Positions 617 to 20,712 of a stretch of 64,000 nt of DNA are shown piece by piece. How positions within the stretch are numbered: position 1 is the stretch's first letter; each line of letters opens with the position of its first letter. This DNA comes from an uncultured Candidatus Saccharibacteria bacterium. GTDB lineage: Bacteria; Patescibacteriota; UBA1384; DTJR01. Location of the stretch: contig CAZAOT010000002.1 of NCBI GenBank assembly GCA_964487045.1, positions 53,305 through 117,304 of the forward strand, in the 5' to 3' direction. The position numbers and the translations under genes are program-made. A model generated the notes under the pieces. That model was not told the origin of the DNA. It made no database searches and saw only the letters and a program-made list of their open reading frames with translations.

Positions 617-844
617 GGCGAAAAGTGCGAGCACTTAAGCCTATTAATAATAGATAGCTCTCTGAAGTTGAAAGCTGGAACTGATTATCTTGGCAAACTT
701 GCCCAAGAATGAATTCCAGAAGGTTCAACAATGAGAGCTTCACCAAGGGCGTTGCGGGGGTAAGGAAATCGTTAAAAACCTAGGGGACACACCGAAAGTG
801 TCCTCTGGGTTGTTAACATCTATGCGAGCTTATAGCTCGCCAAT
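617..844. repeat. Copy A of a ~228-bp conserved element (candidate structured ncRNA / accessory-segment boundary repeat)
   Basis: Near-identical to 20487-20712 (about 20 substitutions over 228 bp, same orientation). Contains predicted helices AGCTCTC(656-662)/GAGAGCT(733-739), GTTGAA(667-672)/TTCAAC(724-729), hairpin CTTGG(689-693)/CCAAG(703-707), hairpin GGGGACAC(783-790)/GTGTCCTC(798-805) and terminal hairpin GCGAGCT(824-830)/AGCTCGC(834-840). Confidence 0.6.
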
Positions 845-937
845 AGATATTCAAATCTATACTTTGTGTTAGGTTTGTGCTATTGTAATTACGCCCTTTG
901 GCGCCAAAACGCCTTTTTTATTTTAAAAGGATTATGC

Positions 938-2389
938 ATGCAAGAAGAAGTATTTTTACGATTCAATGAAGTTAGCTTCGAATATCAACCTAATAAGCCC
1001 ATATTGGATGAGGCCTCATTCTCAGTGAGAAAGAATTCAAAGATTACTCTTATGGGTCAGAACGGAGCAGGTAAGAGTTCAATCTTCTCGCTTATCACCG
1101 GAGAGCTAAAGCCAAAGTCCGGACTAATTTCTATTAATGAGCAGGCGAGTATTGCAATTGGACGACAAGTCATGGCCAGAGAAGATCTACCTCTCACGAT
1201 CAAAGCATATTTTTCAAAAGCATTTAAGGATGTACCTTTTGAAATTGATAAGAGAATTGAGAAAGTCCTGGATGTCGTCAATTTAAAAATATCATCTGAT
1301 AAAATCGTCGGTGAGCTTTCTGGAGGACAGCAAGCTAGACTGCTTCTTGCTTTTGCCTTAATTCAAGAACCAGATATTTTACTTCTTGACGAGCCAACCA
1401 ACAATCTCGATCAGGCCGGTATAGATCATCTAATTACTTTCTTAGTCATGTATGAAAAAACAGTGATTGTAATTTCTCATGATGCAGACTTTCTAAATTG
1501 CTTTACTGAGGGAGTTGTTTATCTCGATAATTTCACTAAGAAGACCGAACAATACGTAGGTGACTATGAATCGGTAGTCAAGGAAATTTCAGAAAGAATC
1601 GAACGCGAAAGACGAAAAAACGCTCAGCTTAAAAAATCTATAATCGATCGCAAAGAGAAGGTTAACTTCTTTGCCCATAAGGGTGGAAAGATGAGAAGAC
1701 TTGCGCGCAAGCTCAAGGAAGAAACAGCTGACCTAGAAGAGAATATGGTATCGGTCAGAAAAGAAGATCGTGCAATTAGAGACTTTGAAATTCCCGCTCA
1801 AGAAATAGTTGGAAAAATTGTCGAAATTAGCGCAGTGAATAAAATCGAAAATCATGAACCAATAGTAAAAGAAGTTAATTTTACATTAAGACAGGGAATG
1901 CACTTACTAGTAACTGGACCAAATGGAATCGGAAAAAGTACACTACTTAGATCTCTTGCTAGTGGCAGAAATCCAAACGCCAAAATTATGGACGGAGTGA
2001 AGGTTGGCTACTACAGCCAAGATTTTTCGAATTTAAATTTTGACCAGACCGTAATGGAATCACTAGAAGAAATTAAGACTGATGGGATCGATGAGCAGAT
2101 GATGCGATCGATTGCAGCCGGTTTTCATGTGACAGGGGACTTGATGAGTCGAAAAATCTCAGAGCTTTCTGAAGGACAGAAAGGACTATTGTCATTTGCC
2201 AGACTAGTTTTGATGGAGCCGGGACTTTTAATCCTCGATGAGCCAACCAACCACATTAATTTTCGCCATCTACCTGTTATTGCCGAAGCGGTTAATGAAT
2301 ATGAAGGGGCGATGATTGTCGTTAGCCATATGAAAGAGTTTTTAGAGCAGATTAAATTTGATGAAGAATTGGATATTGGGAGAATATAA
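938..2389 (+). CDS. ABC-F family ATPase (two tandem ABC nucleotide-binding domains, no transmembrane domain)
   Basis: Two Walker A motifs (GQNGAGKSS, GPNGIGKST), two ABC signatures (LSGGQQARL, LSEGQKGLL) and two Walker B motifs (ILLLDEPTN, LLILDEPTN). Likely start is the ATG at 938 after AAAAGGA; the 866 start in the track is probably an upstream extension. Confidence 0.85.
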   Translation: MQEEVFLRFNEVSFEYQPNKPILDEASFSVRKNSKITLMGQNGAGKSSIFSLITGELKPKSGLISINEQASIAIGRQVMAREDLPLTIKAYFSKAFKDVPFEIDKRIEKVLDVVNLKISSDKIVGELSGGQQARLLLAFALIQEPDILLLDEPTNNLDQAGIDHLITFLVMYEKTVIVISHDADFLNCFTEGVVYLDNFTKKTEQYVGDYESVVKEISERIERERRKNAQLKKSIIDRKEKVNFFAHKGGKMRRLARKLKEETADLEENMVSVRKEDRAIRDFEIPAQEIVGKIVEISAVNKIENHEPIVKEVNFTLRQGMHLLVTGPNGIGKSTLLRSLASGRNPNAKIMDGVKVGYYSQDFSNLNFDQTVMESLEEIKTDGIDEQMMRSIAAGFHVTGDLMSRKISELSEGQKGLLSFARLVLMEPGLLILDEPTNHINFRHLPVIAEAVNEYEGAMIVVSHMKEFLEQIKFDEELDIGRI

Positions 2390-3763: not shown

Positions 3764-3765
3764 TT

Positions 3766-3807: not shown

Positions 3808-3813
3808 TTTTGA

Positions 3814-5478: not shown

Positions 5479-5616
5479 AAAAGAGTTGGGGAAACCCGCT
5501 TATTTTTGATAATTATGACTTGAAATTAGTAGCATAAGCTTATGTTTATTTTAATCTAGATATATCTGTAATAACAATTAAAAATTGATTGAAAGTAAAA
5601 ATATTTAGGGGAGAAA

Positions 5617-5970
5617 ATGAAACTAAACGATATCTACAAATGTGAGGTGTGCGGCAATGTGGTTGAACTGACATTCGTCGGTGGCGGGGAATTAGTTTGC
5701 TGCGGCAAACCAATGATTCAACAAGCGCCAAAGTCTGAGGATCAAGGCACCGAAAAGCATAAACCTGTCATAAATGACGAGGATGTTGAAGTGGGATCCG
5801 TTCCTCATCCCATGGAAGAAGAGCATTTTATTACCTGGATTGAATCAGTCGATGGAGAGGATGTGTATCGAGTGAACCTGAAACCAGGCGATGATCCAAA
5901 AGCCAAATTCGGCTCTGCGGTCAAAGAAGCTCGAGCTTACTGCAACGTCCACGGTCTCTGGAAGAGTTGA
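5617..5970 (+). CDS. dfx: Desulfoferrodoxin / superoxide reductase (2Fe-SOR)
   Basis: N-terminal desulforedoxin-like CxxCG...CCG motif. C-terminal SOR domain with HPMEEEHFITWIE and YCNVHGLW (Cys-His iron ligands). Confidence 0.85.
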   Translation: MKLNDIYKCEVCGNVVELTFVGGGELVCCGKPMIQQAPKSEDQGTEKHKPVINDEDVEVGSVPHPMEEEHFITWIESVDGEDVYRVNLKPGDDPKAKFGSAVKEARAYCNVHGLWKS

Positions 5971-5993
5971 ATCAAGTTCAGCTAGAGCTGATT

Positions 5994-6584
5994 TTACTTT
6001 ACGAGATCATCTATATATTTTTTTATAAATCTTCTAGCTGGAGAAGTAAGTTTGTATTTAAGTGCTGCTTCCAATTCCACCCATTCGAAGCAAGATGATT
6101 CATCATTTATTGTTATTTTATCCAATTCTTTTACATGGAATTCATAAATATGCCATTTGTGGTGGTCGGCACCCCGACGACATGGATCATCGTCAAGATC
6201 GTATTCCATGATATTCTTCATCTTTTCGGGCCTTATGCCGACTTCCTCCAACACTTCTCTTGTTGCCGAATCTTCAGGCATTTCACTTGAGTTCACGTGA
6301 CCAGCAGGTATGGAATAGCCAAAGGGAAATTTGCTTAATTTTATTAAAAGAAGTTGGTTATTATCATTGAATATAAATGCTCCTACACTTTCATGCCAAT
6401 AATTATTTTCTTTGTCAAACCAATACTTAATTTTTTTATCAATTATTATTGAACGCTCAGATTTTGCTTTACAGCCAGAGCAGAAAAAATTACCATCTTT
6501 CTGTTTTTGAATATTATTACTGTAGCACTTAGGGCAAAACTCTCCCTTATCAACTCGTTGAATACTTTTATTAGTTATTTTCAT
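5994..6584 (-). CDS. NUDIX hydrolase with N-terminal zinc-ribbon
   Basis: CPKC...CSGC zinc ribbon, then the Nudix box GHVNSSEMPEDSATREVLEEVGI (GX5EX7REVXEEXGU). Confidence 0.8.
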   Translation of the reverse strand: MKITNKSIQRVDKGEFCPKCYSNNIQKQKDGNFFCSGCKAKSERSIIIDKKIKYWFDKENNYWHESVGAFIFNDNNQLLLIKLSKFPFGYSIPAGHVNSSEMPEDSATREVLEEVGIRPEKMKNIMEYDLDDDPCRRGADHHKWHIYEFHVKELDKITINDESSCFEWVELEAALKYKLTSPARRFIKKYIDDLVK

Positions 6585-6698
6585 AATTTACCCTATATTT
6601 TGATAAAAATATCATAGAATACTCACGATATCTAGTTTCTCCTCTTCAGCTATTTACAAAATAATAATTAAGTCTATAATCTTGAAAAACCCACAGAA

Positions 6699-7712
6699 AT
6701 GTTTGACTTCAAAGTAAAACAAATAAATTCAGACTTTCTAGTAACGGAAGTCCCACTACTGCCGGAAGTTAAGAGCCCTCAAAAAAGCAATTACACATAC
6801 GTCTGGTTAAGTAAAAGTAACTATACAACCTTTCGATCTTTAGAGTTAATATCAAAAAAATTCAATATATCGTTAGCAGATGTTAATGCACAAGGCTTAA
6901 AAGACGAAGATGCAATTACATCTCAAATTATCTCACTTAAGAAAATATTAACACCTAGCCAGGTTAATGCATTTAATCTAGAATCTCGTAAATCCTCAAA
7001 GACTTATATGAAAATTGATAGGATTATTGGTTATGGTAAATATCCTGTTCAAGAAAGAAATCTTCATGGCAATTGCTTCGAAGTCACGATTCGAAATCTC
7101 GAATTGAGTAGAGCTGAAAAGTTGGAAGAATTATTAAGAAACCATAGAACACTATCGTTTATCAACTATTACGATAGCCAAAGATTTGGAATGCCAGGCG
7201 GTCCTTACAATACTCACCTAATAGGCAGATCTATAATTGATAATAATTTAGATAAGCTCAAAAAAGAGCTTTTAAAGTCAAATAATAATATTAATGTTAA
7301 TACTATTAAAACCTGGGATAATTTTTACGAACAAGTAGACAGTAGAAAGATTTCATTCTTTATAAATTCATACAATAGCGCACTGTTCAATACTGAATTA
7401 TCGAGCCAGGTCCGCTTCAATAACAAAAGCCAAAGAGTTGAATTTAACAATCTACCAAAATTGTATCTTCCCAAAACACCTCACTATCTAATTGCAAACA
7501 ACATTATTATCGATGGTTATTCCATAAAGGATCGATCTGTCATAAAAAAGACTAAGACGAGACTCTCTTCAGTTCAAACCGCAATATATTCAAAAAAAAT
7601 ACAAAAAGACAGAATTAATTTAGGTAAATACTCACTAACAGTTTCATTCTATCTGCCAACGGGAAGCTACGGAACAATGCTTATAAGCCAGCTGGTCTAT
7701 TGGTCGAGATAA
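6699..7712 (+). CDS. truD: tRNA pseudouridine synthase TruD-like
   Basis: GLKDEDAIT matches the TruD GxKDxxA catalytic-Asp motif. NYYDSQRFG matches the TruD NYFGxQRFG motif. Confidence 0.6.
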   Translation: MFDFKVKQINSDFLVTEVPLLPEVKSPQKSNYTYVWLSKSNYTTFRSLELISKKFNISLADVNAQGLKDEDAITSQIISLKKILTPSQVNAFNLESRKSSKTYMKIDRIIGYGKYPVQERNLHGNCFEVTIRNLELSRAEKLEELLRNHRTLSFINYYDSQRFGMPGGPYNTHLIGRSIIDNNLDKLKKELLKSNNNINVNTIKTWDNFYEQVDSRKISFFINSYNSALFNTELSSQVRFNNKSQRVEFNNLPKLYLPKTPHYLIANNIIIDGYSIKDRSVIKKTKTRLSSVQTAIYSKKIQKDRINLGKYSLTVSFYLPTGSYGTMLISQLVYWSR

Positions 7713-7746
7713 AAAAGAAGAGGCGGGCTGCAAACAGCCCGCCCCA
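7711..7746. terminator. Bidirectional terminator at the low-GC / high-GC junction
   Basis: GGCGGGCTG(7722-7730)-CAAA-CAGCCCGCC(7735-7743), preceded by an A-run. Confidence 0.65.
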
Positions 7747-7756
7747 GTGCGATCAC

Positions 7757-8029
7757 CTAGTCGCCGCAGTACCCCTTCTTCGTAACACGGTTACCGATGA
7801 TCTTGTTGGCATCGCGCCCGCGGATTTTAACCCGCCTGGCAAACTCTGTGCCACACTTTGGACAATTCAACTTGCCACCAGTGTTGTCTTCAGTGATTCC
7901 ACTCACGTAGCACTTCACTAGATGACCCGGCCCCTCCTTGTTGTACTTGTAAAGAAGGAACTGGCACTTTGAGCAGTAGACTTCAATTGGATATATGCCC
8001 TTTCCCCCTTTTTGTTTCCTTTTTGGCAT
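7757..8029 (-). CDS. Small zinc-ribbon protein (GC-rich operon)
   Basis: CSKC...CPKCG pairs and a basic N-terminus; GC about 52%; immediately upstream of the DHOD-like gene on the same strand. Confidence 0.4.
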   Translation of the reverse strand: MPKRKQKGGKGIYPIEVYCSKCQFLLYKYNKEGPGHLVKCYVSGITEDNTGGKLNCPKCGTEFARRVKIRGRDANKIIGNRVTKKGYCGD

Positions 8030-8037
8030 GAGACACC

Positions 8038-9168
8038 TCAGTATGATGTGGTTATAGCTTTATGCGGACAAGTCCCCACACATGCGTTGCATCCTACGCA
8101 TTTTGCTGAATCTATCGTCGGCTTAAGGTCAGCGAATGTCATCGCTGAGAACCCACACACGTGGACGCATTTTGCACACATCCTGCACTTGTCCAAGTTG
8201 ACTATAGGCGTAGTGGGGTTGAACCTGCTTTCACAGTCAGACCACCTTTGAGATACACCGATCAACGAACGTATGTCTGGATACTGTGAATTTGACTCAA
8301 GAAACCTTAGTATTTCACAAGAGATTCTCTTGAAGACTCCAGGACCCTCAAGGGCTGGCGCGGTATAAAGTTGTACAGCACTAGCGCCAGCCATGATCAT
8401 CTGGATAACACGTTCGCCCGTGTTGACTCCACCTGATCCTACCACTGGAATTGCTAGCGCACTAGAGAGTGTGTATACACACCACAGGGCAATCGGAAAG
8501 ACCGCGTCACCTGTCACGCCACCAGCACCGCCCTTAACCCCTAAGGTCGGCTTAGTGGTGTTGATATCTAGAAAGAGACCAGGACCGATTGAGTTGGTTG
8601 TCACGACACAATCGGCTCCCTCTCTCTCTGCCTCTAAAGCCATTTCCGTGATGAGAGGCGAGTATGATAGCTTCACCCAAACAGGAAGATCAATGGCGGA
8701 TCGAAGTGTCCCCACAGTCCGCCTCAGATGCTCATAGTTGATGTTCAGATTGCCATGCAATGCACCAGAGTGCGCGCATGAAACATTGACCTCGAAAGCA
8801 TCAACGTGACCTGTTCGCGCAAATTGACGAGCAAGCCGGACGCAGCCTTCGATGTCACGTGCGCTTAGAGAAACGATTAGCGCTCCATGTTTCTTAGCGG
8901 CAATAGTGTACTCGTTAAGCCAGGTCTGCCACGATGTCTGGTTGCTCCACTCGCAGTTCAGCATCGATCCATTGCCAAAGACGTGGTAACGCGGACTCGG
9001 TATATTCCTGCGTTCCTCAGGTACTGTCTCGCGCAAAGATCTCGTGACCATCCCGCTGCACCCCTCTGACACACTCCTTACAAAGAAATCCGGAGATTCA
9101 GTGATATGGCCCGAGGCCAAAAGCAGCGGAGTCGATAGCTCAACACTGCCGACACTTGCACTAATCAT
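8038..9168 (-). CDS. Dihydroorotate/dihydropyrimidine dehydrogenase-family flavoprotein fused to a C-terminal 2x[4Fe-4S] ferredoxin domain (PreA-like)
   Basis: DHOD-fold motifs (LLLASGH, TTNSIGPG, VVGSGGV, MAGASAVQ) plus C-terminal CRMCAKCVHVC and CVGCNACVGTCP clusters. High GC. Confidence 0.7.
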   Translation of the reverse strand: MISASVGSVELSTPLLLASGHITESPDFFVRSVSEGCSGMVTRSLRETVPEERRNIPSPRYHVFGNGSMLNCEWSNQTSWQTWLNEYTIAAKKHGALIVSLSARDIEGCVRLARQFARTGHVDAFEVNVSCAHSGALHGNLNINYEHLRRTVGTLRSAIDLPVWVKLSYSPLITEMALEAEREGADCVVTTNSIGPGLFLDINTTKPTLGVKGGAGGVTGDAVFPIALWCVYTLSSALAIPVVGSGGVNTGERVIQMIMAGASAVQLYTAPALEGPGVFKRISCEILRFLESNSQYPDIRSLIGVSQRWSDCESRFNPTTPIVNLDKCRMCAKCVHVCGFSAMTFADLKPTIDSAKCVGCNACVGTCPHKAITTSY

Positions 9169-9721
9169 CTTGCCCAGCTCCTTTCAGTACTTGCTCCATA
9201 CGTCTGAGCATCTCCACAGCTATCATGTTCTCATTTGCCTGACTTACTCGAAATACACACTCAAAAGTCTCTGTGTGGATCCGAGCAATTTCGTCTTCTG
9301 CAGCAGCCAGTCTCTCTCTGATCTCGTCCTCGGTTTCCGTTGCGCGATAGTCGCGCAGCCTTGTCTCGAGAAACTTGATGTCTTCAGGCAGTACAGCAAT
9401 ACGATATATCTCCCAGCTACACGAGGAAGCGCGCGATACGTTACTTACGTGCAACTCCGTCACGTATGACCCGCGCGGGTCGATCTCGCTAACCAACAGA
9501 CCATATCTACTACCGTATAGTTCGTGATCAAAGAGAATGCCACCGCTTTTAAGTATTCGTGCGAACGCTTCATCGTCCATGCAAACTCGGCCAGTTTCGC
9601 CGTCACGAGGGAGTCGAGTTGTGGCCCAACTCAACTCTTTCACATCGGGATAGGCCTCGATCAGTTTCCTTTTCAGGAAACCTTTACCAACCCCAGAAGG
9701 GCCAGTAAATGAGATAATCAT
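9161..9721 (-). CDS. gmk: Guanylate kinase (GC-rich copy)
   Basis: P-loop ISFTGPSGVGKG and the ATTRLPRDGE (TTRxPRxGE) motif; overlaps the upstream gene by 8 nt (operon). Confidence 0.8.
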   Translation of the reverse strand: MIISFTGPSGVGKGFLKRKLIEAYPDVKELSWATTRLPRDGETGRVCMDDEAFARILKSGGILFDHELYGSRYGLLVSEIDPRGSYVTELHVSNVSRASSCSWEIYRIAVLPEDIKFLETRLRDYRATETEDEIRERLAAAEDEIARIHTETFECVFRVSQANENMIAVEMLRRMEQVLKGAGQDD

Positions 9722-9868
9722 TCAACTCACCCTTTCAAGGAGCTATATTCGTATACACGAATAAATAGTTATACTTCAGCATGGTTGAAAAGTCAATCAA
9801 ACAATTTACAATCCCTTATAAACTCCCCAGAAAATGATACGATTAGATTGTAAATTAATCGGATTATT

Positions 9869-10858: not shown

Positions 10859-10902
10859 TATAAATTTCTGATTTGGCGAGCTAGAAGCTCGCGCTTATAT
10901 TG

Positions 10903-11100: not shown

Positions 11101-11133
11101 GAAAAACCCCCGGACGCAAGCGGCCGGGGTTTG
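11101..11133. terminator. Bidirectional GC-rich terminator
   Basis: CCCCGG-ACGCAAGCGG-CCGGGG hairpin with A-run and T-run flanks, directly downstream of the minus-strand gene 11151-11438. Confidence 0.7.
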
Positions 11134-11150
11134 TAGCGACAGGTCCTCTG

Positions 11151-11438
11151 TCAGAGCGTAGGCAGTACCACGCGAAAAAACGTGATAGTTGCCATGACAG
11201 CAGGGACGCTGAAGCCAATCAGCGCGACCAGCTTCGTGAGCGTTCGTGGGGTCGCCTGCAGGAACCCTCTCAGCCAACTCGTGAAGACAAAGGCATTCGC
11301 AGAGATCTGCAGGATAGCCGTGGCCAACCTCCACTCCTCATGATTACTGAGGTAGAAATTGGCCAGCACGAACATCGTCAATCCCGTCAGACCTGACAAG
11401 ATCATCAGGATTCTGACACTGCGACTAATTCCGGCCAT
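11151..11438 (-). CDS. Small GC-rich integral membrane protein (3 TM helices)
   Basis: 95-aa hydrophobic ORF in a ~55% GC patch; the overlapping ORF 11089-11334 is judged spurious. Confidence 0.45.
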   Translation of the reverse strand: MAGISRSVRILMILSGLTGLTMFVLANFYLSNHEEWRLATAILQISANAFVFTSWLRGFLQATPRTLTKLVALIGFSVPAVMATITFFRVVLPTL

Positions 11439-11509
11439 TTTCTCACTTCCAGTGATTGGCGCAGAATGTTGGATAATATCATATTTTTAGCAAAAAGTCA
11501 ATGCTAGAA

Positions 11510-11542
11510 TCCTTGCGTATCAGGTTAAAAAGTTCTATTATT
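11510..11542 (+). promoter_or_regulatory. Copy 1 of an identical 33-bp promoter-like module (TTGCGT-17 bp-TATTAT)
   Basis: TCCTTGCGTATCAGGTTAAAAAGTTCTATTATT is an exact match to 12484-12516. -35-like TTGCGT 11513-11518, 17-bp spacer, -10-like TATTAT 11536-11541. Confidence 0.45.
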
Positions 11543-11665
11543 GAGTTAATGTGTTGGCCAATAATATATTAAATTGATGACAGATATGTCGGAAAAATTT
11601 ATTGAGAGCAATAATTGATCAATAATTTGAATAAAATACGATGTATGGATTTTACAGGATCTGCA

Positions 11666-11694
11666 TTGACAGAATCTAGCTTTTTTGATATTAT
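11666..11694 (+). promoter_or_regulatory. Near-consensus sigma70-type promoter upstream of the NYN gene
   Basis: TTGACA (11666-11671), 17-bp spacer, TATTAT (11689-11694). Followed by hairpin ACCCGCC(11711-11717)/GGCGGGT(11729-11735) plus TTTT in the leader. Confidence 0.45.
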
Positions 11695-11753
11695 GTACTT
11701 AGCTAAAAACACCCGCCCTGCTATGCACGGCGGGTTTTATATTAAGGGGAAAT

Positions 11754-12317
11754 ATGAGTTCTAAAGAGAGGGTGGGAATATTTATTGATGGCAGTAATCT
11801 GTATCACAAGCTGAAAAATAAAGAAATAAATATTAAGAACACAGGTAGATTTGATTTTTGTGAATTCTGTAATTGGTTAGCACGCGATAGGGAGATTATT
11901 TTCAAAGCATATTATATCGGAGTTGTACGAGCTAAGGCTGACGACAAGAAAGCTCAGAACATGCGAAAAAGCCAACAGAAATTGTTTTCTCATTTATGCA
12001 GCAAATCACAAAATTTTGTTGTTAGACGTGGGTTTATGATGAAAAACGACGGTGCATTTCATAAAAAAGGAGTCGATGTACACCTAGCCACAGACCTATT
12101 AGTTGGTGCGTACGAGGATTTGTGGGATACGGCAATAATCGTTTCCTCAGATACAGACTTAATTCCAGCGATTGAAAAAGTTAAACAGATCGGAAAGAAA
12201 GTCGAATATATCGGCTTCGCTCATCTGCCCAGTTTTGGCCTGCAGAAATATGCATCACTATCCCGGCTCTTGATAAAAGAAGATGTTCAGGCTTTTGAGT
12301 ACAAAAATGAAAGATAA
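11754..12317 (+). CDS. NYN-domain (LabA/DUF88-like) predicted RNase
   Basis: VGIFIDGSNL, GVDVHLATDLL and IVSSDTDL motifs of the NYN/LabA fold. Confidence 0.75.
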   Translation: MSSKERVGIFIDGSNLYHKLKNKEINIKNTGRFDFCEFCNWLARDREIIFKAYYIGVVRAKADDKKAQNMRKSQQKLFSHLCSKSQNFVVRRGFMMKNDGAFHKKGVDVHLATDLLVGAYEDLWDTAIIVSSDTDLIPAIEKVKQIGKKVEYIGFAHLPSFGLQKYASLSRLLIKEDVQAFEYKNER

Positions 12318-12483
12318 GTGCCTTGTTCAATTGGAGATAGAGAAAAAGTTGAAAATAGTATTAAAAGCGGGAGGCGTCACCAGCAGCACGTAGCTTTCGG
12401 TTCGTTTCTCCCTCTTAATTAACTATAATTTATTCATTTTATCAACTTTTGTCAATATTTAGATTAAAAATATATTATATATT

Positions 12484-12516
12484 TCCTTGCGTATCAGGTT
12501 AAAAAGTTCTATTATT
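12484..12516 (+). promoter_or_regulatory. Copy 2 of the 33-bp promoter-like module, upstream of the small membrane protein / hsdM operon
   Basis: Exact duplicate of 11510-11542, 33 nt upstream of the ATG at 12549. Confidence 0.45.
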
Positions 12517-12548
12517 AGCCAAGAAGTTAGTAATTAAATTTATTTTTT

Positions 12549-12809
12549 ATGGATAGAATCGAGAAATTAGAAGAAGAGATTCAGCTGATTAAAAAACGAA
12601 ACACTTCGGTTGAGCTGGATAAGCAGTGGGAAACCAGCTGGACGAGAAGGGGACTGATCGCACTTTTCACTTACTTAGCAATCTCGCTTTATATGCTTGC
12701 AATTAACATCGACCGACCGTTTCTCAACGCCATCGTCCCAACCGTCGGCTTCATGCTCTCAACCTTGACTTTGCCGTGGTTTAAAAAGATGTGGATAAAA
12801 AATAAATGA
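12549..12809 (+). CDS. Small membrane protein (2 TM) heading the RM operon
   Basis: 86-aa ORF with an N-terminal coiled segment and two hydrophobic helices. Confidence 0.45.
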   Translation: MDRIEKLEEEIQLIKKRNTSVELDKQWETSWTRRGLIALFTYLAISLYMLAINIDRPFLNAIVPTVGFMLSTLTLPWFKKMWIKNK

Positions 12810-12902
12810 ATATCGACTATAAAGAATTAGAAAAGTTTTTGTATAACGCCAATTTAGTCTTTGAGCAAAATTTTATTGGTGGGATAATTGTGGGGAGGAA
12901 TA

Positions 12903-14483
12903 ATGACCGATGATCAAAAAAGAAATTTAGAAAAGCAGCTCTGGGGTGTCGCGAATGTGCTGCGCGGTAAGATGAATGCCGATGAGTACAAGAACTACAT
13001 TCTCGGCTTTATTTTTTATAAGTATCTTTCTGAAAAGCTGGAAAATTTTGTTGATGAAAAGTTGCTAAAAGGCGACGGAATAAAATTTTCAGATATTAAA
13101 GAAAATACAAAAGAGGGGCAAGAATACATTACTAGCATAAAAAAGCGCTGTTTAAACGAACTTGGCTTTTTTCTTATGCCGACCGAATTATTCTCCTACT
13201 TGGTAAAAAAGGGCAAAGGCGATTTGAAAACCGACGGCAATTTCATTCTCGAAGATCTAAAAAGTGTTTTAAACAAAATCGAACAAACATCTCAAAATAC
13301 TGACTCGGAAGATGACTTCAAGGGGTTGTTTGCGGACGTATCACTAACTTCAGACAAACTGGGCAATGGTGAAAATAAAAAGAATGAAACAATTGTCGAT
13401 GTGCTGTCTTTATTAGATGAAATTGACTTCAAACTAGATGATGCAAAAAGTGATCTTTTGGGTGATGCTTATGAATACCTAATCGGCCAATTTGCTGCCG
13501 GTGCTGGCAAAAAAGGCGGTGAATTCTACACCCCGGCACAAGTTTCTCGACTTTTAGCCCAAATTGTGACCGAAGGGAAAAGCCGTATCCGCTCTGCATA
13601 TGACGCAACTTGCGGCTCGGGTTCTTTGCTTTTGCGCCTTCGCGAATTTTCTCAAGTAGATGATTATTACGGTCAAGAGCTAAACCCGACAACCTACAAC
13701 CTCGCCCGCATGAATATGATTCTTCACGGCGTTCACTTTGATCACTTCAATATCAAACAAGGCGATACGTTGACAAACGATCTGCATCCGGATCTTAAAG
13801 CCGAAGCAATTGTTGCTAATCCGCCATTTTCTGCTGAATGGAAGGGCGAAAAAGATCCCGCACTTGTCCAGGATGAGAGATTTGCGCAATATGGACGACT
13901 CGCTCCAAATAAAAGAGCTGACTATGCTTTCGTAACTCACATGATTCATCACTTAGCTGATAATGGCATAATGGCAATTTTGCTTCCTCATGGTGTGCTT
14001 TTTGCCGGCTCTGCTAATTTAACAATTCGCCGATATATCATTGAGAAATTAAATTATTTAGATGCAGTAATAGGGTTGCCGGCCAATTTATTTTATAATG
14101 TCGGGATACCTGCATGCATTTTAGTGTTCAAAAAATGCCGCAAACAAGACGGCGATATTCTCTTTATCGATGCGTCACGAGAGTTCGCTAAAGGCAAGAA
14201 TCAAAACCACCTGACAAGCGAAAACCTTGCCAAGATATTTGAAACTTACAAAGACCGCAAAGAAGTCGATAAATATTCGCACAAGGCAACACTCGATGAA
14301 ATCAAAGAAAACGACTTCAATCTAAATATTCCTCGTTATGTCGATACCTTCGAACCAGAACCGGAAATTAACCTCAACGAAGTCGTCACCGAAATCAAAA
14401 AGATCGACACCGACATGATCGAAGTCGATAAAAAAATCACAGAATATTGCAAGGAATTAAATATAAAATCACCTTTTCAATAA
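12903..14483 (+). CDS. hsdM: Type I restriction-modification system methyltransferase subunit
   Basis: HsdM N-terminal domain (LWGVANVLRGKMNADEYKNYILGFIFYKYLSE), AdoMet motif I (DATCGSGSLL) and motif IV NPPF (IVANPPFS). GGGGAGG RBS before the ATG at 12903. Confidence 0.9.
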   Translation: MTDDQKRNLEKQLWGVANVLRGKMNADEYKNYILGFIFYKYLSEKLENFVDEKLLKGDGIKFSDIKENTKEGQEYITSIKKRCLNELGFFLMPTELFSYLVKKGKGDLKTDGNFILEDLKSVLNKIEQTSQNTDSEDDFKGLFADVSLTSDKLGNGENKKNETIVDVLSLLDEIDFKLDDAKSDLLGDAYEYLIGQFAAGAGKKGGEFYTPAQVSRLLAQIVTEGKSRIRSAYDATCGSGSLLLRLREFSQVDDYYGQELNPTTYNLARMNMILHGVHFDHFNIKQGDTLTNDLHPDLKAEAIVANPPFSAEWKGEKDPALVQDERFAQYGRLAPNKRADYAFVTHMIHHLADNGIMAILLPHGVLFAGSANLTIRRYIIEKLNYLDAVIGLPANLFYNVGIPACILVFKKCRKQDGDILFIDASREFAKGKNQNHLTSENLAKIFETYKDRKEVDKYSHKATLDEIKENDFNLNIPRYVDTFEPEPEINLNEVVTEIKKIDTDMIEVDKKITEYCKELNIKSPFQ

Positions 14484-14484
14484 A

Positions 14485-15042
14485 ATGAAGAACCCCGAAA
14501 ATTACGATGCAATTCGAATTGATGGAATAATTTGGAAGATACAAGGATCTGAAGTTATTCCAATTTGCCCAAAAGATAATTTACAAATGTACCCAGTTAA
14601 TAATTCTCGTTTTGGATGGGAAGATGATATTTATAATCGTAGTAATATTCTAAAATGCCTAGATGATCATTTTGTCGAGATGAAAAGGGGCTATGGTGAT
14701 GAGATACGCTATATCACTGACCGTTTAAAGGCCAGGGATCTTAAAAATATTAAAATTTTAAACCTTGATGATGAAGCTATGCCGATTGCAAAAGCAAATT
14801 CGAAAACAACCGATAATAAATATTCGGCAACTATTCAAGTAATGGAATCAAAGCGTGGATTGCAGGTTGTCGTTTACGCTGGAAAAAAGGGTGGCAAAAA
14901 TACACAAATTTTCGTAGAGCCGGAAGCGAAAAAGATGAGTTTTGATCATAATGATGCACACCCCAGTGAAATCTTTACTGAAATTACTGCGAAATTTCAA
15001 GACGGTACTTCCAGCACAATTAAAAAAAATGACAAAAATTAA
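14485..15042 (+). CDS. Hypothetical protein embedded between hsdM and hsdS
   Basis: 185-aa ORF starting 1 nt after the hsdM stop and overlapping the hsdS start by 12 nt; no recognisable motif. Confidence 0.5.
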   Translation: MKNPENYDAIRIDGIIWKIQGSEVIPICPKDNLQMYPVNNSRFGWEDDIYNRSNILKCLDDHFVEMKRGYGDEIRYITDRLKARDLKNIKILNLDDEAMPIAKANSKTTDNKYSATIQVMESKRGLQVVVYAGKKGGKNTQIFVEPEAKKMSFDHNDAHPSEIFTEITAKFQDGTSSTIKKNDKN

Positions 15043-16255
15043 CACCCCAAAACTTAGATTCAAGGAATTCACTGACGAGTGGCAAGAAAAAAAGCTCTGC
15101 GATGTTTTGTTGTGTATTGTGGATAATCGTGGAAAAACACCTGGATTATCCAGCAGGGGAATTCCCTTGATAGAAGTAAATGCAATGGGTGCAAAGAAAG
15201 TTGATTATTTTGGTATCAACAAATATGTCAGCGATGAAACTTATGAAAAATGGTTTAGAAAGCATATTTCAGAGGGAGATGTATTATTCAGCACGGTCGG
15301 AAAGACAGCGGTATGTTCTACTTATAGCGGGGACAAAAAAGCTGCAATTGCTCAAAATATTGTTGGCCTGAGAGCAAATCATCAAAATTCTGCAAACTTT
15401 TTATATTATTTATTAATTGAACCTAGTAATAATAATAAATTTAAGAAAATAGAAATGACTGCTGTTCAGCCAAGCGTTAAAGTTTCTCAAATGATTCACC
15501 TAAAATTTAATCTGCCTCAGAAGCCCGAGCAGCAAAAAATTGCTGATTTTTTAGGAGCGGTGGATGAGAAGATTGAAAAATTGGAAGAAAAGAAAAAGGC
15601 ATTTGAAAAATACAAAAAAGGCATTATGCAGGCAATTTTCAGCCAAATGATTCGTTTCAAAAAACCCGACGGCTCAAATTTTCCGGATTGGGAAGAAAAG
15701 AAATTAGGAGAAATTGGTGAATTTTATCGTGGCCACAGCTACACGGCTGCTAACGTTAAAGTCGAGGGTTTCCTTGTGCTTAGGTCAAATAATATCCAAG
15801 GAAATAAATTAATAATCAATCGCGATCTTCAATTTGTTAACAAGCCTTTTGGTAAACAAATAGCGCTGAGAAAAGATGACATAGCAATATGCATGGCAAA
15901 CGGTAGTAAGCAACTGGTCGGCAAATCAGCTGTGTATGATGGGGATTACAACGGTCCCGCTACAGTTGGCGCATTTTGCTCAATTTATCGATCAAAATGT
16001 TTATTAGCCAAATATTTATTTGAATTGTCAAAGTACGACCGGGAGATTGAACTTCTCCTAAGCGGCACCAACATCAACAATTTAAAAAACTCGGATTTAG
16101 CGAGTATAGGATTCAAATTACCCACATCATTTGAAGAACAAGAAAAAATTGCAGAGTTTTTGTTTACGTTAGATAATAAAATCAATTTAATAAATAGCCT
16201 GCTGGAGCAGACAAAACTTTTCAAAAAATCATTGCTGCAAAGGATGTTTGTATGA
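15031..16255 (+). CDS. hsdS: Type I RM specificity subunit with two target-recognition domains
   Basis: N-terminal PKLRFKEFTDEWQEKKL, central conserved coiled region (QQKIADFLGAVDEKIEKLEEKKKAFEKYKKGIMQAIF) and a second half with the same architecture. The ATG at 15031 is the likely start. Confidence 0.85.
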
Positions 16256-16515
16256 AACCCGAAAACTATGAGCAGCTAAATACGGTTCATTTAGATGACC
16301 TTGATCGTCTGTTGAATTCATGTGGCATAAATTCAGAATACAAACAAAAAAAGGTTAAGTGCAAATTTTGCAAAAACACAATCGACAGTAATAATGTTTA
16401 TTCTGTATTCAAGGATTCAGGTTCTTACAAATTAATATGTGACCGACCAGAATGTATTCAGTCACTACTACAACTTGTTAATGAGCGGAAGAAAAAGGAG
16501 TGCGGTAATGAATGA
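16252..16515 (+). CDS. Small Cys-rich (zinc-ribbon-like) protein embedded in the RM operon
   Basis: 87 aa, CKFCKN...CDRPEC. The ATG overlaps the hsdS stop (ATGA) and the ORF overlaps the next ORF by 8 nt. Confidence 0.4.
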   Translation: MKPENYEQLNTVHLDDLDRLLNSCGINSEYKQKKVKCKFCKNTIDSNNVYSVFKDSGSYKLICDRPECIQSLLQLVNERKKKECGNE

Positions 16516-17617
16516 TGCTTGGAAGTATTTATCGGGATTTGGTTCAGGAACATTTATTACAATAGTTATTGCGTATATCCTTTTTAAGAACCCCGAGGTC
16601 GTCAAGAAATGGGGTGCAATATTCTACGATCTTCTATCAAGAATATTTGATAAGTATAAATATAAATCCGAAAAGTATAGAATCGAAACAAAGCTCAATA
16701 GCTTCGTTGATGATCTCTCTAGAGATTCCGACATCGATCCAACTAAAGTAAGGATTCAATGGGCGGCTAGAGAGGAGGATGAGAAATGTTTAGTTAATGA
16801 TAATGACGTAATTATTGTTATGCGCGATAGAGAACACAAACATAGAAACTTTGTTCACGCAGCATATTTTTTTACATCCAACATGCTGCTCTGGAGAACA
16901 AAAAGACACATTTCAAAAAAACAAGGGCAAGCGATCGATATATACACAGCAAAAAAAATCATAGAGAAAGACCCTGTTTCGCTAAGGATTTATTTAGAGA
17001 ATTATTTTCAGCCACTTCTTGAAGATGCTGACGTTAATAAGTTGGTAAAAAAATTCGTCGAAATTGATAAGTCGGGATTTTATACTAATATTCTTCTAAC
17101 TGAATTATCTTCCCTTGGTTATAAAACACTTTTGGACGCAAAGGACAGCGACATCGTAGTTGAGGCAAAACTTCTCATTGAATTTCTCTATAATTTTGCA
17201 AACCGCGAACTTGGTGATGAGCAAACTGAAGATACCTTCATCGGAAAATATTCTAGGTGCTCTATTAAGATTGTTTCTACAATTACACTCAGAATCCTCG
17301 ATCGAGTTGAGTCTCCAGCGAAAAGAATTCTCGACGCTTTTTCCAGAGGTCTAGAAAATGTGTACATTATTGGACCTTACGGTGAATATGGCAAGGTTTT
17401 TATTGACAAAGTAATAGATAAGGTAATTTCATCAAATGAAAATCTGGTAGTTTGTCAAAAAAGAAAATTTACTGGCTGTATTAAAAAGGATGGCGAGAAG
17501 ATTTCGATATTAACATATTTTGCTCATATTCAGAATCCTAAACAGATATCCTATTTAATTACTGATGATATGACAGAGAGAATTGAAAAATTTAAAACTG
17601 AGGCTGTTGAAAAATGA
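16508..17617 (+). CDS. Hypothetical ~370-aa protein with N-terminal TM helix, embedded between hsdS and hsdR
   Basis: GGAG RBS 8 nt upstream of the ATG at 16508. N-terminal hydrophobic helix (FGSGTFITIVIAYILF). No P-loop or known nuclease motif seen. The stop overlaps the hsdR ATG (ATGA). Confidence 0.5.
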   Translation: MNDAWKYLSGFGSGTFITIVIAYILFKNPEVVKKWGAIFYDLLSRIFDKYKYKSEKYRIETKLNSFVDDLSRDSDIDPTKVRIQWAAREEDEKCLVNDNDVIIVMRDREHKHRNFVHAAYFFTSNMLLWRTKRHISKKQGQAIDIYTAKKIIEKDPVSLRIYLENYFQPLLEDADVNKLVKKFVEIDKSGFYTNILLTELSSLGYKTLLDAKDSDIVVEAKLLIEFLYNFANRELGDEQTEDTFIGKYSRCSIKIVSTITLRILDRVESPAKRILDAFSRGLENVYIIGPYGEYGKVFIDKVIDKVISSNENLVVCQKRKFTGCIKKDGEKISILTYFAHIQNPKQISYLITDDMTERIEKFKTEAVEK

Positions 17618-20409
17618 CAACACAATCCGAATTACAACTTGAAAATACATTAGTCGAGCAAATGCAGCGGTTGGGGTTTGAGTCGATTACAATCGATGGC
17701 GTTGATGCATTGGTTGCAAATCTCAAAACTCAACTCGAAAAATTTAATCAAATAAAATTTTCCGATGCAGAGTTTGCGCAAATTTTGAATCATTTAAACA
17801 AAGGCGATCGATTCCAGAAAGCAAAGACTCTGCGCGACCGATTTATCGTTCGCCGAGATGATGGTGAGACATCGTTCATTCGATTCTTTAATATGGATCA
17901 GTGGTGCAAAAATGAGTACCAAGTTGCAAGGCAGATCACGCAAATTGGCAAATATGAAAACCGCTATGATGTAACTCTTTTGATCAATGGCTTGCCTTTA
18001 GTGCAGATTGAGCTAAAGCGCCGTGGAATGGAAATGAAAGAAGCGTTTAATCAAATCCAACGCTACCACAAACACTCGTTTACTGGAACATTATTTGAGT
18101 ATGTTCAGATTTTTGTTATCTCAAATGGCGTTAACACTAAATACTTTTCAAATAACCCAAACCAATCGTTCGAACAAACTTTTTTTTGGACCGATGAGAA
18201 GAATGAGAAGATAACTAGACTGGAAGATTTTGCCAAGTTATTTCTAGAAAAGTGTGCGGTATCCAAATTCATTGCCGAGTACATTGTACTCGCCGAATAC
18301 CATAAAATCCCATTGGTTTTGCGACCGTATCAGTACTACGCAGTAAAAGAAATTGAATCGCGAGTTAAGGAATCAAACAAAAACGGTTACATCTGGCATA
18401 CCACCGGCTCGGGGAAGACTTTGACATCATTTAAAGCCAGCCAAGTACTCTCAGGAATTCCAGAGGTAAAGAAAGTTTTGTTCGTAGTTGACCGCAAGGA
18501 TTTAGATATTCAAACGACCAAGGAATTCAATTCATTTTCCGACGGCTCGGTGGACGGAACCGATAACACTCGGCATTTAGTTAGCCAGCTAGAGGATAAA
18601 AACCGCAAGCTAATCGTTACAACGGTTCAGAAACTTGATATTGCCATTGGCCGAGAAAGTTATTTGAAAAAGCTGGAATATTTGAAAGATGAAAAAGTAG
18701 TTATCATTTTTGACGAATGTCACAGAGGTCAGTTCGGTCAGACGCATGCGAGAATTAAATCATTTTTTAAGCGCGCGCAACTTTTTGGTTTTACTGGCAC
18801 GCCGATTTTTGCTGAAAATAATGTTGGCGGAGTAACAACGGCCGATGTTTTCGATGAATGCTTGCATCGCTACATCATTACCAATGCGATTTCTGATAAT
18901 AATGTTCTGGGGTTTGCGGTTGAGTATGTAGGCAAATACAAACAAAAGGATAGCGATGTGGTTGATAAAGATATTTTTGCAGATAGTATGGTGGAGGGAA
19001 TAAATACTCGGGAAGTTTTGGAAAGTGATGCGCGGGTTGAAAAGATTGCGGAATATGTGTTGCAAGACTGGAAGCGAAAGACCAAAAATGGAAAGTTCAA
19101 TGCATTCTTTGCAGTTTCGAGTATTGAGATATTAAAGAAATACTACAAGATTTTATCTGCCAAGAAGCCAGATGATTTTAAGATTGCTACAATTTTTACA
19201 TATCAGGCCAACGAAGATGAAGTCATTGATTTGGACGTTGACGCATTTCCAGAGGAGGGCGAACCGGTCAATCAGCATTCGCGCGATTTCTTGGAGAGCT
19301 GTATTAAAGATTACAATGCATTATATTCGACTAACTTTTCAACTGACCGATTTTATGACTATTACCGAGATTTGCAGCAAAGAATTAAAAAGCGAGAAGT
19401 TGATTTAGTTTTGGTCGTAAATATCTTTTTGACTGGTTTTTATAGCCCTCGCTTAAATACTCTATATGTCGATAAAAACTTACGCTATCACGGGCTGATT
19501 CAGGCATATTCGCGAACAAATCGTTTGCTTGATTCCGATAAGCCGCATGGCAATATTGTTTCGTTTAGGAATTTGAAAGAAGCGACAGATAAGGCGCTGG
19601 CACTTTATGGCGACGAGAATGCAAAAGAAATTGTTTTCAAAAAGCCGTACAAGCAACAGAAAAAGGAATTTGAAGTAAAGCTTGTTGGACTCCGGGAGAA
19701 GGTGCCGACCGTTGAGTCGGTTGATGGACTAAAAAGCGAGGATGAGTTAGCTGAATTCGTTAAATCGTTTCGTGATCTACTTAGAGTTAAATCGTCGCTG
19801 GAGACATTTGCCGAATTTTCATTTGCTGATTTAGGTATTTCTGAACAAGAATTTTATGATTATCAAAGTAAATATTTGGATATATATGACGAAAGAAAAG
19901 AACATGGGCAAGGGCCTGAATTGATTCTTGATCAAATTGATTTTGAGTTAGAACTGACAATTAGAGATGTGATCAATTATGACTATATAATTATGCTGAT
20001 TGCTGGACTAAAGAATATAACTTCGGATCGATTGAGAGAAAAGAAGGCTGAGGATATTTTGCGAATGTTTGATCGAGATGTAAAGCTCAGAAAAAAGAAG
20101 GATCTAATAAAGAAATTCATTGAAGAAAATTTGCCAAAGATCGACAAGGCAGAGAGCGTTGAGAAAGCGTTTGGTGAATTTTGGGCAAACGAAAGATCGA
20201 AGGTTTTGCGAGATTTGGCAAGCGAAGAAAATATTCCGGTTGAAAATATCGAGGAGTTGGTAGGTGAATACTTATATACACAAAAATTACCGAAAGATCA
20301 GGAAGTTGCCGACATTCTGCCAGCAGGAACTAAGTTCTTAAAGCAGCAAGGCCTGATTGATCGAATTAAAGGTGTGATTGAGAAAATTGTAGATGTGTTT
20401 GAGTGGTAA
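17614..20409 (+). CDS. hsdR: Type I restriction enzyme R subunit (SF2 helicase/endonuclease)
   Basis: Walker A HTTGSGKTLT, DEAD-box-like FDECHRGQ, and 931 aa typical of HsdR. Confidence 0.9.
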   Translation: MTTQSELQLENTLVEQMQRLGFESITIDGVDALVANLKTQLEKFNQIKFSDAEFAQILNHLNKGDRFQKAKTLRDRFIVRRDDGETSFIRFFNMDQWCKNEYQVARQITQIGKYENRYDVTLLINGLPLVQIELKRRGMEMKEAFNQIQRYHKHSFTGTLFEYVQIFVISNGVNTKYFSNNPNQSFEQTFFWTDEKNEKITRLEDFAKLFLEKCAVSKFIAEYIVLAEYHKIPLVLRPYQYYAVKEIESRVKESNKNGYIWHTTGSGKTLTSFKASQVLSGIPEVKKVLFVVDRKDLDIQTTKEFNSFSDGSVDGTDNTRHLVSQLEDKNRKLIVTTVQKLDIAIGRESYLKKLEYLKDEKVVIIFDECHRGQFGQTHARIKSFFKRAQLFGFTGTPIFAENNVGGVTTADVFDECLHRYIITNAISDNNVLGFAVEYVGKYKQKDSDVVDKDIFADSMVEGINTREVLESDARVEKIAEYVLQDWKRKTKNGKFNAFFAVSSIEILKKYYKILSAKKPDDFKIATIFTYQANEDEVIDLDVDAFPEEGEPVNQHSRDFLESCIKDYNALYSTNFSTDRFYDYYRDLQQRIKKREVDLVLVVNIFLTGFYSPRLNTLYVDKNLRYHGLIQAYSRTNRLLDSDKPHGNIVSFRNLKEATDKALALYGDENAKEIVFKKPYKQQKKEFEVKLVGLREKVPTVESVDGLKSEDELAEFVKSFRDLLRVKSSLETFAEFSFADLGISEQEFYDYQSKYLDIYDERKEHGQGPELILDQIDFELELTIRDVINYDYIIMLIAGLKNITSDRLREKKAEDILRMFDRDVKLRKKKDLIKKFIEENLPKIDKAESVEKAFGEFWANERSKVLRDLASEENIPVENIEELVGEYLYTQKLPKDQEVADILPAGTKFLKQQGLIDRIKGVIEKIVDVFEW

Positions 20410-20486
20410 GAGCTCGTCGCTTGCGACACCGATATCGAAAGTCGATCCTTATAAAAGCTTAGGACAAGTTTTTTACATGAGATAAG

Positions 20487-20712
20487 GCGAAAAGTGCGAG
20501 CACTTGAGCCTATAAAAAATATCACGCTCTCCGAAGTTGAAAGCTGGAACTGATTATCTTGGCAAACTTGCCCAAGAATGAATTCCAGAAGGTTCAACAA
20601 GGAGAGCTTCATCAAGGGCGTTGCGAGGGTCAGGAAATCGTTAAAAACCTAGGGAACACACCGAAAGTGTGCCCTGGGTTGTTAATATTAGCCGCGAGCT
20701 TTAGCTCGCCAA
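20487..20712. repeat. Copy B of the ~228-bp conserved element
   Basis: Aligns with 617-844. Helix partners changed in a correlated way (GCTCTCC 20526-20532 / GGAGAGC 20601-20607). Lies between convergent hsdR and the glycosyltransferase gene. Confidence 0.6.

Follow-up and report, generated by a model that had tools for sequence, protein, structure and literature searches.

The repeat pair and the question it raises

In an uncultured Candidatus Saccharibacteria bacterium, a member of the Patescibacteria, a stretch of 64,000 nucleotides (GenBank assembly GCA_964487045.1, contig CAZAOT010000002.1, positions 53,305 to 117,304 of the forward strand; the whole stretch is referred to below as the window) carries two long direct repeats that enclose 19.6 kb of DNA, including a Type I restriction-modification (RM) operon. 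Are these repeats the ends of a genomic island, as had been proposed in a preliminary description of the window, or do they have another origin? The analysis presented here favors the second possibility. The two copies, designated A and B, are very probably members of a dispersed family of modular, folded repeats and not island ends.

A repeat search of the window placed the direct copies at positions 616-819 and 20485-20688 on the same strand, with 92% identity over 204 ungapped nt. Gapped alignment extended the similarity to ~616-845 and 20485-20712 (93% mean column identity over 237 columns), starting at AGGCGAAAAG (616/20485) and ending at GCTCGCCAA (~842/20710). The two 228-base direct repeats of the preliminary description are real: they occupy 616-845 and 20485-20712, are ~92% identical, lie on the same strand and are non-coding. 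The 64 kb contain just one more repeat family with a length of 60 nt or more, so the A/B pair is far beyond chance. Copy A is bordered on the left by the 3' end of a gene for a PIF1-type helicase with an HTH_40 C-terminus, which stops at 564, and on the right by an ABC-F gene's promoter/leader (start at 938); copy B lies between the stop of hsdR (20409) and the stop of a convergent glycosyltransferase gene (20740).

Short-read contigs of the same organism (Logan) end inside copy A (window position 702) and inside copy B (~20656), since repeats break short-read assembly. No alternative junction corresponding to a deletion or a circle was present among the short Logan contigs returned, which break inside the repeats.

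Two further copies in the window

The window was searched with two covariance models: R1, built from A and B alone, and R2, a family-level model of the 3' domain built from 22 members and run with filters off. R1 scored copy A (616..845, plus strand) at 290 bits and copy B (20485..20712, plus strand) at 291.8 bits, and gave full-length matches to two further copies, diverged relative to A/B. Copy 3 (10868..11090, minus strand; 62 bits, E = 4e-14) lies inside the A-B interval, while copy 4 (43811..44031, plus strand; 42 bits, E = 4e-9) is 23 kb beyond it; both were also recovered by nhmmer (E = 1.5e-30 and E = 6e-24, respectively). With R2, exactly four matches of 80-87 bits were obtained in the window (79.7 bits for copy A, 86.6 for copy B, 87.1 for copy 3 and 84.6 for copy 4), the runner-up reaching 14.7 bits, and the best of the four was copy 3. 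The repeat pair cannot, therefore, be the unique bracket of a segment that it was taken for: one further family copy is inside the interval and another outside, which argues against island ends.

Copy 3 sits after the intrinsic terminator of a small membrane-protein gene (11151-11438, minus strand), and its end is 10 nt from the stop of the convergent open reading frame (ORF) 9869-10858. Copy 4 is directly 3' of the rplA terminator; downstream of it are a strong promoter, a GC-rich non-coding stretch and the L10 leader.

Modular structure of the element

Members of the family are ~200-265 nt in length and consist of an array of hairpin modules in the order P1 (optional), P2, joiner, P3 and P4, followed in some members by P5/P6. 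The P2-joiner-P3 part forms a conserved multi-hairpin core of ~180 nt. The optional 5' hairpin P1 has the form GGCGAA-hairpin-UGAGCC in A and B, and is elsewhere a plain GC hairpin or the upstream gene's own terminator. In copy A this module (P1a; 616..642, plus strand, as are all copy A modules) reads GGC-GAA..AAGUGC GAG GCACUU..(U)AA-GCC, and P1a-type modules with compensatory changes in the inner stem are also present in four metagenome loci (L024, L028, L036 and L011; loci are cited below by such numbers).

P2 is a long irregular hairpin of at least three sequence types, with the apex CA(A/G)AC(N)UG in 22 of the 27 members; in copy A it spans 657..738 and has the apical sequence GGCAAACUUGCC, and its helices covary across the family. 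It is followed by the joiner, a conserved, purine-rich segment (..GCG..GGGGU(A/C)AGGAA.. in 24/27 members, with GCG and GGGU(A/C)AGGAA as its invariant parts), which in copy A occupies 739..770 and ends in ...GGGCGUUGCGGGGGUAAGGAAAUC. The hairpin P3 bears an apical loop of the GNRA type in all 27 members (CGCAA in 23); in copy A (771..817) it is formed by GUUAAAAACCUAGGGG...CCUCUGGGUUGUUAAC and capped by a GAAA (GNRA-type) tetraloop. After the short GC-rich hairpin P4 (824..840 in copy A, GCGAGCUUAUAGCUCGC) comes an A-rich tail. P5 and P6 are extra REP-like hairpins, and the sequences used for P4-P6 (GCGAGC..GCUCGC, GCAAGC..GCUUGC and UUCCGGC..GCCGGAA) occur in combinations that vary between members.

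The same parts were located in the other copies of the window: in copy B (plus strand) P1a at 20485-20511, P2 at 20526-20607, the joiner at 20608-20639, P3 at 20640-20686 and P4 at 20694-20709; in copy 3 (minus strand) P2 at ~10981-11048 and P4 at 10876-10892; and in copy 4 (plus strand) a core at ~43850-44025, with P2 at 43852-43932, P3 at 43954-44003 and P4 at 44010-44023.

Conservation of the fold

Compared with shuffled sequences, both repeats of the pair fold with unusual stability (copy A: -90.7 kcal/mol, z = -7.2; copy B: -86.8 kcal/mol, z = -6.4), and the differences between them break none of the 64 consensus base pairs. In a model-fitted alignment of 28 members, 91.4% of the cells pair, compared to 65.6% in shuffles and no more than 51% in slid controls; in this covariance model alignment, changes on both sides were found in 60 of the 64 pairs. 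When the 3' domain was aligned with MAFFT only, RNAalifold recovered P3 and the local P4 hairpin, with compensatory changes in 17/19 pairs. Such changes are present in every helix. Moreover, folding is more stable for the sense strand than for its complement in 23/27 members (mean difference 6.4 kcal/mol; p = 3.8e-6). The structure of the element is strand-specific, and its pairing is kept through compensatory changes.

An alternative-pairing switch was also considered. The long-range joiner:P4 pairs that it would use are mostly conserved and do not covary, whereas the local P4 hairpin does. A kissing contact of the P2 apex with the joiner was rejected, the two sequences, read by eye, being complementary in copy 3 only. 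Finally, a small ORF was examined and rejected as a candidate coding function: the 24-codon frame common to A and B shows three non-synonymous changes versus one synonymous change and is not found in other subtypes.

Distribution of the family beyond the window

To find relatives elsewhere, a degenerate pattern derived from the joiner and the third hairpin was scanned against species-representative genomes and metagenome loci. It matched nine species-representative genomes, three of which proved real by R1 (labelled as a Berkelbacteria metagenome-assembled genome (MAG), a Saccharibacteria MAG and an unclassified bacterium), and 29 metagenome loci, most of them real. In all, members are present on at least ~20 distinct contigs. 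Two copies per locus were found in L014, L018, L024, L025, L036 and L011, arranged as head-to-head pairs in L011 and L025, and multi-copy contigs carry copies in both orientations. In carrier genomes there is ~1 copy per 16-25 kb. Some Patescibacteria, with tiny and gene-dense genomes, nevertheless carry a structured element of 200-265 nt at this spacing, which makes up a sizeable share of their non-coding DNA.

Identical modules of 40-45 nt are found in contigs labelled as different classes of the candidate phyla radiation (CPR), and contigs from different organisms have sequence subtypes in common. No copy was present in L046 and L047 (32 kb together; glycosyltransferase 75-77% identical to that of the window), nor in L001 and L003 (ABC-F 76-77% identical). 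The family occurs patchily in Patescibacteria.

With regard to a phage or plasmid origin, no match was obtained in a pattern scan of IMG/VR, or in INPHARED phages and PLSDB plasmids. A comparison of the window with Rfam 15 at the gathering threshold returned the L10 leader only; copy A gave chance-level matches only at E up to 10, and at E up to 5 no match fell on any element in eleven element-bearing loci. In the searchable literature, no description of the repeat family was found.

Genomic position, dispersal and mosaicism

Among the 24 loci having an upstream gene in view, this gene is co-oriented with the element in 17. The downstream gene is convergent in about half of the loci having one in view, including those of window copies B and 3, and most of these convergent genes have their stop 2-58 nt from the 3' end of the element. 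Several copies, including window copies 3 and 4, begin no more than 10-40 nt past the canonical terminator of the upstream gene, and some are opposite to both neighboring genes (e.g., L011:4500-4726). After several copies, canonical TTGACA-17-TATAAT promoters for the downstream genes are visible.

Near-identical members are found at unrelated sites: among the 29 listed pairs whose identity is 85% or higher, the flanks are non-homologous in 27 (e.g., L020/L022, 95%; L020/L018b, 93%). The 92% identity of A and B is hence typical for the family, since pairs of 85-95% identity occur in unrelated flanks. The edges of similarity vary from pair to pair and fall at the boundaries of P1, P2, P4, P5 or P6; because they coincide with module edges, the members can be regarded as mosaics. 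No motif is shared by the left flanks of the elements.

Eighty-six ORFs on element-bearing contigs are housekeeping genes (e.g., RuvB, RecA, DnaA, L19, TGT, Pth), with no recurrent transposase or reverse transcriptase among them. As a separate observation, L004, a close relative (ABC-F 89% identical), contains an IS200-like Y1 transposase gene flanked by GTTCCACCCCGCGGGTGGAAC-type hairpins (coordinates 900-1030, 2640-2690 and 3385-3420), and the GTTCCACCCCGCGGGTGGAAC-type hairpin is repeated upstream of ABC-F. These hairpins are a distinct REP/PATE-like repeat, unrelated in sequence to the element studied here.

The interval between copies A and B

The gene content of the interval was verified by Pfam and NCBIfam scans of all ORFs of at least 70 aa in 1-20.7 kb and of the larger ORFs up to 52 kb. 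The gene list of the preliminary description is correct by Pfam and comprises ABC-F, 2-thiouracil desulfurase/DUF523, sortase, desulfoferrodoxin, NUDIX, TruD, a dihydroorotate dehydrogenase (DHOD)-like protein with an Fe-S domain, a guanylate-kinase-like protein, an NYN protein and HsdM/HsdS/HsdR. Its statement that integrase, recombinase and transposase are lacking was borne out as well, none being found by Pfam/NCBIfam between 1 and 52 kb, and ARAGORN detected no tRNA or tmRNA gene in the 64 kb.

Several of these properties are those expected of an island inserted at, or excisable from, 845-20485 by recombination between attL/attR-like direct repeats, whose integrase has since decayed. The two most similar copies (92%) are direct and 19.9 kb apart, the interval contains the Type I RM operon, the NYN protein and a GC-rich patch, and homologous recombination between 228-bp repeats is physically possible. 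Gene order in relatives, however, points in another direction. The order of the genes for the glycosyltransferase, MreB, MurA, a PEGA-domain protein, WecG and NusA (window 20.7-32 kb) is kept in L047 and in an ENA contig, the latter continuing the conserved order through ClpB-RelA-HisRS, while L046 shows the block only to the PEGA-domain gene. On the other side of the glycosyltransferase gene, the sortase gene is adjacent in L047 and one gene away in L046 and the ENA contig; the sortases of the window and of L046 share 63% identity. ABC-F of the ENA contig is 8.7 kb from the glycosyltransferase gene, in the order and orientation of the window. Because relatives keep them in window order, ABC-F and sortase are ancestral anchors inside the proposed island; ABC-F, which is 70-77% identical across very many Patescibacteria MAGs, is for that reason a core gene. 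The glycosyltransferase of the window is closest to Berkelbacteria-labelled proteins among the named matches.

The comparison with relatives (75-77% identical in glycosyltransferase) did not show the interval to be absent as a unit, the order of ABC-F, sortase and glycosyltransferase being kept, and the glycosyltransferase/sortase junction of L046 and L047 carries no copy of the element. What does differ from relatives is the part of ~5.5-20.7 kb. This variable stretch (5500..20480, no strand assigned), between sortase (4915-5478) and glycosyltransferase (20740-21915), contains the superoxide reductase (SOR), NUDIX and TruD genes, the GC-rich DHOD-like/gmk-like patch, copy 3, the NYN gene and the Type I RM operon. 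Its left edge is at no repeat, and the repeat pair does not delimit it. The proposal is partly right for the right two-thirds of the segment (~5.5-20.7 kb, including Type I RM, NYN and the GC-rich patch), which is variable relative to these relatives.

The site of copy A was compared in L043, whose ABC-F is 90% identical. There, too, an element precedes the conserved ABC-F promoter/leader in this position, but it is of a different subtype and lies beside a different upstream gene. The L043 element indicates that the site of copy A is an old element site or a hot spot and no island boundary. In the ABC-F leader itself, the stretch from promoter to start codon contains a hairpin with a T-run behind it (885-930), which is kept in this 90% identical relative (L043, 1180-1215); it may be an attenuator-type leader.

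The composition of the interval is that of the chromosome. Tetranucleotide usage of the interval correlates with that of the rest at r = 0.963, compared to r = 0.978 for the outside halves against each other, and a larger deviant patch (37.0-40.8 kb) is found outside the interval. The mosaic GC content described earlier applies to 7750-9725 (GC 0.50); the interval as a whole resembles the flanking chromosome in tetranucleotide usage, so that k-mer composition, except at 7750-9725, gives no support to an island. The 19.6 kb that separate the repeats are best explained as ordinary chromosome, composed of conserved anchors and a variable stretch, and not as the cargo of the repeats. The proposed 19.6-kb accessory island bounded by the repeats is refuted, the repeats occurring at many unrelated loci, which removes a false genomic island from this window. 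Copies of an interspersed element, which also breaks short-read assemblies, can appear in CPR genomes as long "direct repeats".

Three observations concern individual segments of the region. The 7750-9725 patch (GC 0.50 versus ~0.38) has a tetranucleotide usage uncorrelated with the rest of the window (r = 0.01). Encoded there on the minus strand are a DHOD-like protein fused to a 4Fe-4S domain, a protein resembling guanylate kinase and one with a zinc ribbon; none of them reaches the NCBIfam equivalog cut-offs, and the patch has the look of a small insertion of foreign DNA. Outside the interval, the most deviant stretch of the window (37000-40800; GC 0.556, tetranucleotide r = -0.17) contains the ORFs 37095-38480, 38512-39669 and 39854-40723, which have no Pfam match and are low-complexity and secreted-looking; this stretch is a likelier candidate for acquired DNA than the A-B interval. 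Within the Type I RM operon, the ORFs 14485-15042 (185 aa) and 16439-17617 (392 aa), without a Pfam/NCBIfam match, could be embedded accessory defence genes.

Comparison with known systems

BOX elements are modular interspersed repeats (boxA-boxB(n)-boxC) of Streptococcus pneumoniae, confined to one genus and bearing complementary terminal modules. They and the element are alike in being dispersed, intergenic, at most a few hundred nt long, modular and mosaic, with very stable predicted folds; both often lie at gene ends, in many copies per small genome, and encode no protein. Unlike BOX, the element has no inverted termini, contains a conserved single-stranded joiner and a GNRA-capped hairpin, and occurs in contigs labelled as different Patescibacteria classes. 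With repeats of the MITE type (miniature transposable elements with inverted repeats) in general (Correia, RUP, ERIC, BOX) it shares the many dispersed, intergenic, non-coding copies, but not the terminal inverted repeats, target-site duplication and fixed ends.

The REP/BIME sequences of Enterobacteria are resembled by the short GC-rich palindromes P4-P6 in their variable mosaics, and by the positions of the element after genes and between convergent genes. REP, however, is a palindrome of 35 nt, whereas the core of the element is ~180 nt and its P2-joiner-P3 part has no REP counterpart. No RAYT (Y1 HUH transposase) was seen in the 64-kb window of this genome. For BOX, ERIC and REP/BIME, the proposed roles include that of a 3'-end structure/insulator or of a protein-binding platform.

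Structured RNAs of unknown function, such as the raiA motif (Rfam "Gene; sRNA"), are similar in size (~200 nt), covarying helices, conserved loops and non-coding nature. The raiA motif and other motifs of this Rfam type usually occur in 1-2 copies per genome at characteristic loci; the element differs from them in its frequency (one copy per 16-25 kb), unrelated flanks, mosaic structure and lack of an Rfam 15 match. The likeness to attL/attR consists of two same-strand copies flanking ~20 kb with an RM system, but here the repeat is not restricted to the boundaries and not in a tRNA gene, no integrase is present, and conserved anchors lie inside. The element is therefore of a known kind, that of interspersed structured intergenic repeats; new are the ~180-nt conserved core, its presence in contigs labelled as different CPR classes and the lack of DNA-transposon hallmarks.

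Four further identities were considered and rejected. A tRNA gene split by a group I intron (an idea prompted by PMC13011429) is not compatible with the element, which is too short, lacks tRNA halves and gives no Intron_gpI match. A cis-regulatory leader (T-box, riboswitch or attenuator) was dismissed, about half of the copies facing a convergent gene. In the case of an integron attC site, the core sites are in the wrong order and there are several hairpins, while an IS200/IS605 link via L004 was abandoned because the hairpins are unrelated.

Possible nature of the element and alternative explanations

Most likely, the element is a BOX/BIME-like interspersed repeat predicted to fold as RNA, and A and B are best explained as recently copied or homogenised members of the family. 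Such an element would be carried at "safe" intergenic sites at gene ends, and could be transcribed by read-through from the upstream gene and act as a folded RNA, possibly as a 3'-end structure/insulator or a protein-binding platform. Spread and homogenisation might proceed by recombination or gene conversion between copies, or through a factor supplied in trans; any of these would explain why A and B are 92% identical. A specific role at the RNA level is conceivable, though we consider it doubtful.

Several points weigh against this picture. The relatives used for synteny are just 75-77% identical in the glycosyltransferase protein and offer no true empty-site comparison. The members were found via a pattern in the joiner and P3, so the conservation of these parts is in part ascertainment, and the main covariation count rests on the model-fitted alignment. 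The identical modules in contigs labelled as different CPR classes, like the conserved loops, could reflect strong functional constraint, as in a true RNA gene, and not mobility. A consensus scan found no promoter or terminator belonging to the element on the sense strand, and no shared -35/-10 upstream and no U-tract after P4 were apparent by eye; transcription, RNA ends and any RNA-level role are features that we infer from the sequence. As for dispersal, nine near-identical pairs showed no target duplication in their flanks, the ends are not fixed, and the ends of A and B share just GGCGA as an inverted sequence, with no terminal inverted repeats. Lacking inverted termini, target duplication and fixed ends, the element fits no known transposition mechanism.

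A rather unlikely alternative is that the copies constitute a true multigene family whose products are non-coding RNAs, each transcribed independently and acting in trans (ribonucleoprotein scaffolds or regulators), and that they are kept by selection for a function in the cell and not spread as a repeat. It would explain why every helix covaries and the structure is strand-specific, why loops and joiner are conserved, with a GNRA-type tetraloop in 27/27 members, and why the same subtypes recur in the contigs of different organisms; copies opposite to both neighbors, such as L011:4500-4726, would in fact need a promoter of their own. It is less easily reconciled with the absence of the element from L046, L047, L001 and L003, a patchiness unusual for an essential RNA, with near-identical copies in unrelated flanks and with variable mosaic ends. 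Furthermore, no promoter motif or terminator tail is shared, and copies often start no more than 10-40 nt from the terminator of an upstream gene. The fallback offered in the preliminary description, that the repeats could be independent RNA genes, came close in that they are structured, RNA-like and unrelated to the content of the interval; the RNA role is one that we infer.

Also unlikely is a reading of the element as gene or template for a new, Patescibacteria-specific class of functional RNA, an assessment that includes the possibility of copying like that of short interspersed elements (SINEs). Under such a reading, an unrecognised ribonucleoprotein or RNA-guided system could have it as its RNA partner, or it could be a SINE-like element that is copied, via an RNA intermediate, by a reverse transcriptase supplied in trans. 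Either would explain the conservation, at the level of sequence, of loops and entire modules across CPR classes, the strand-specific structure, the A-rich tails, the many copies and the lack of DNA-transposon hallmarks.

Very unlikely is an origin from an RNA-guided or single-strand-DNA mobile element, with the repeat as its non-autonomous derivative that is mobilised in trans; candidates are an IS200/IS605 palindrome-associated element with a TnpB omega-RNA scaffold and an IS110-type bridge-RNA end. Elements of the IS200/IS605 type have no inverted termini, cause no target duplication and possess end hairpins and a strand-specific structure. The repeat studied here agrees with this in lacking inverted terminal repeats and target duplication and in its hairpins at both ends and strand-specific structure; its multi-hairpin scaffold of ~200 nt is similar in size to guide-RNA scaffolds, and a Y1 transposase gene is present on the contig of the close relative L004. 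Yet the hairpins flanking that gene are unrelated in sequence to the element, no Y1, TnpB, IscB or DEDD transposase domain was found in window 1-52 kb, and no such transposase is recurrent among the 86 ORFs of the element-bearing contigs. Nor is the left end preceded by a conserved short target motif, and neither a fixed end nor a match to an IS605/HEARO-type Rfam model was found.

The genomic island with decayed integrase, for all the variability of ~5.5-20.7 kb, is extremely improbable in view of the third copy inside and the fourth outside, the family at many unrelated loci of other genomes, the syntenic anchors, the lack of recombinase and tRNA genes, the chromosome-like composition and the repeat-free junction of L046/L047.

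As an interspersed repeat, the element offers a marker of rearrangement hot spots and a candidate regulator or stabiliser at the RNA level, as well as a test case for repeat spread without recognisable transposases.

Other features of the window

Downstream of copy 4, positions 44068-44096 hold a near-consensus promoter (TTGACT-17-TATACT). The stretch of 276 nt behind it (to 44372) is GC-rich and looks non-coding, and it ends in a hairpin and T-run just before the L10 leader. This stretch (fold z = -4.3; no Rfam match) may, together with its promoter (44068-44372), represent an unannotated structured RNA. The adjoining region, 44515-46994, contains rplJ-rplL and a putative TGT-like gene, and is followed by TrwB-like ATPase genes and not by rpoB/rpoC.

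The second repeat family of the window consists of two copies of 125 nt with 74% identity (49026-49150 and 51355-51479), located within adjacent genes for TrwB/VirD4-like (DUF87/HerA-type) ATPases (47058-49517 and 49468-52083). Since the repeat is common to two neighboring ATPase genes, it can be attributed to tandem gene duplication. Finally, at ~52000-53000 the cumulative GC skew reaches a peak, gene orientation changes from plus to minus (convergent) and GC falls to 0.30, a pattern as expected at a replication terminus.

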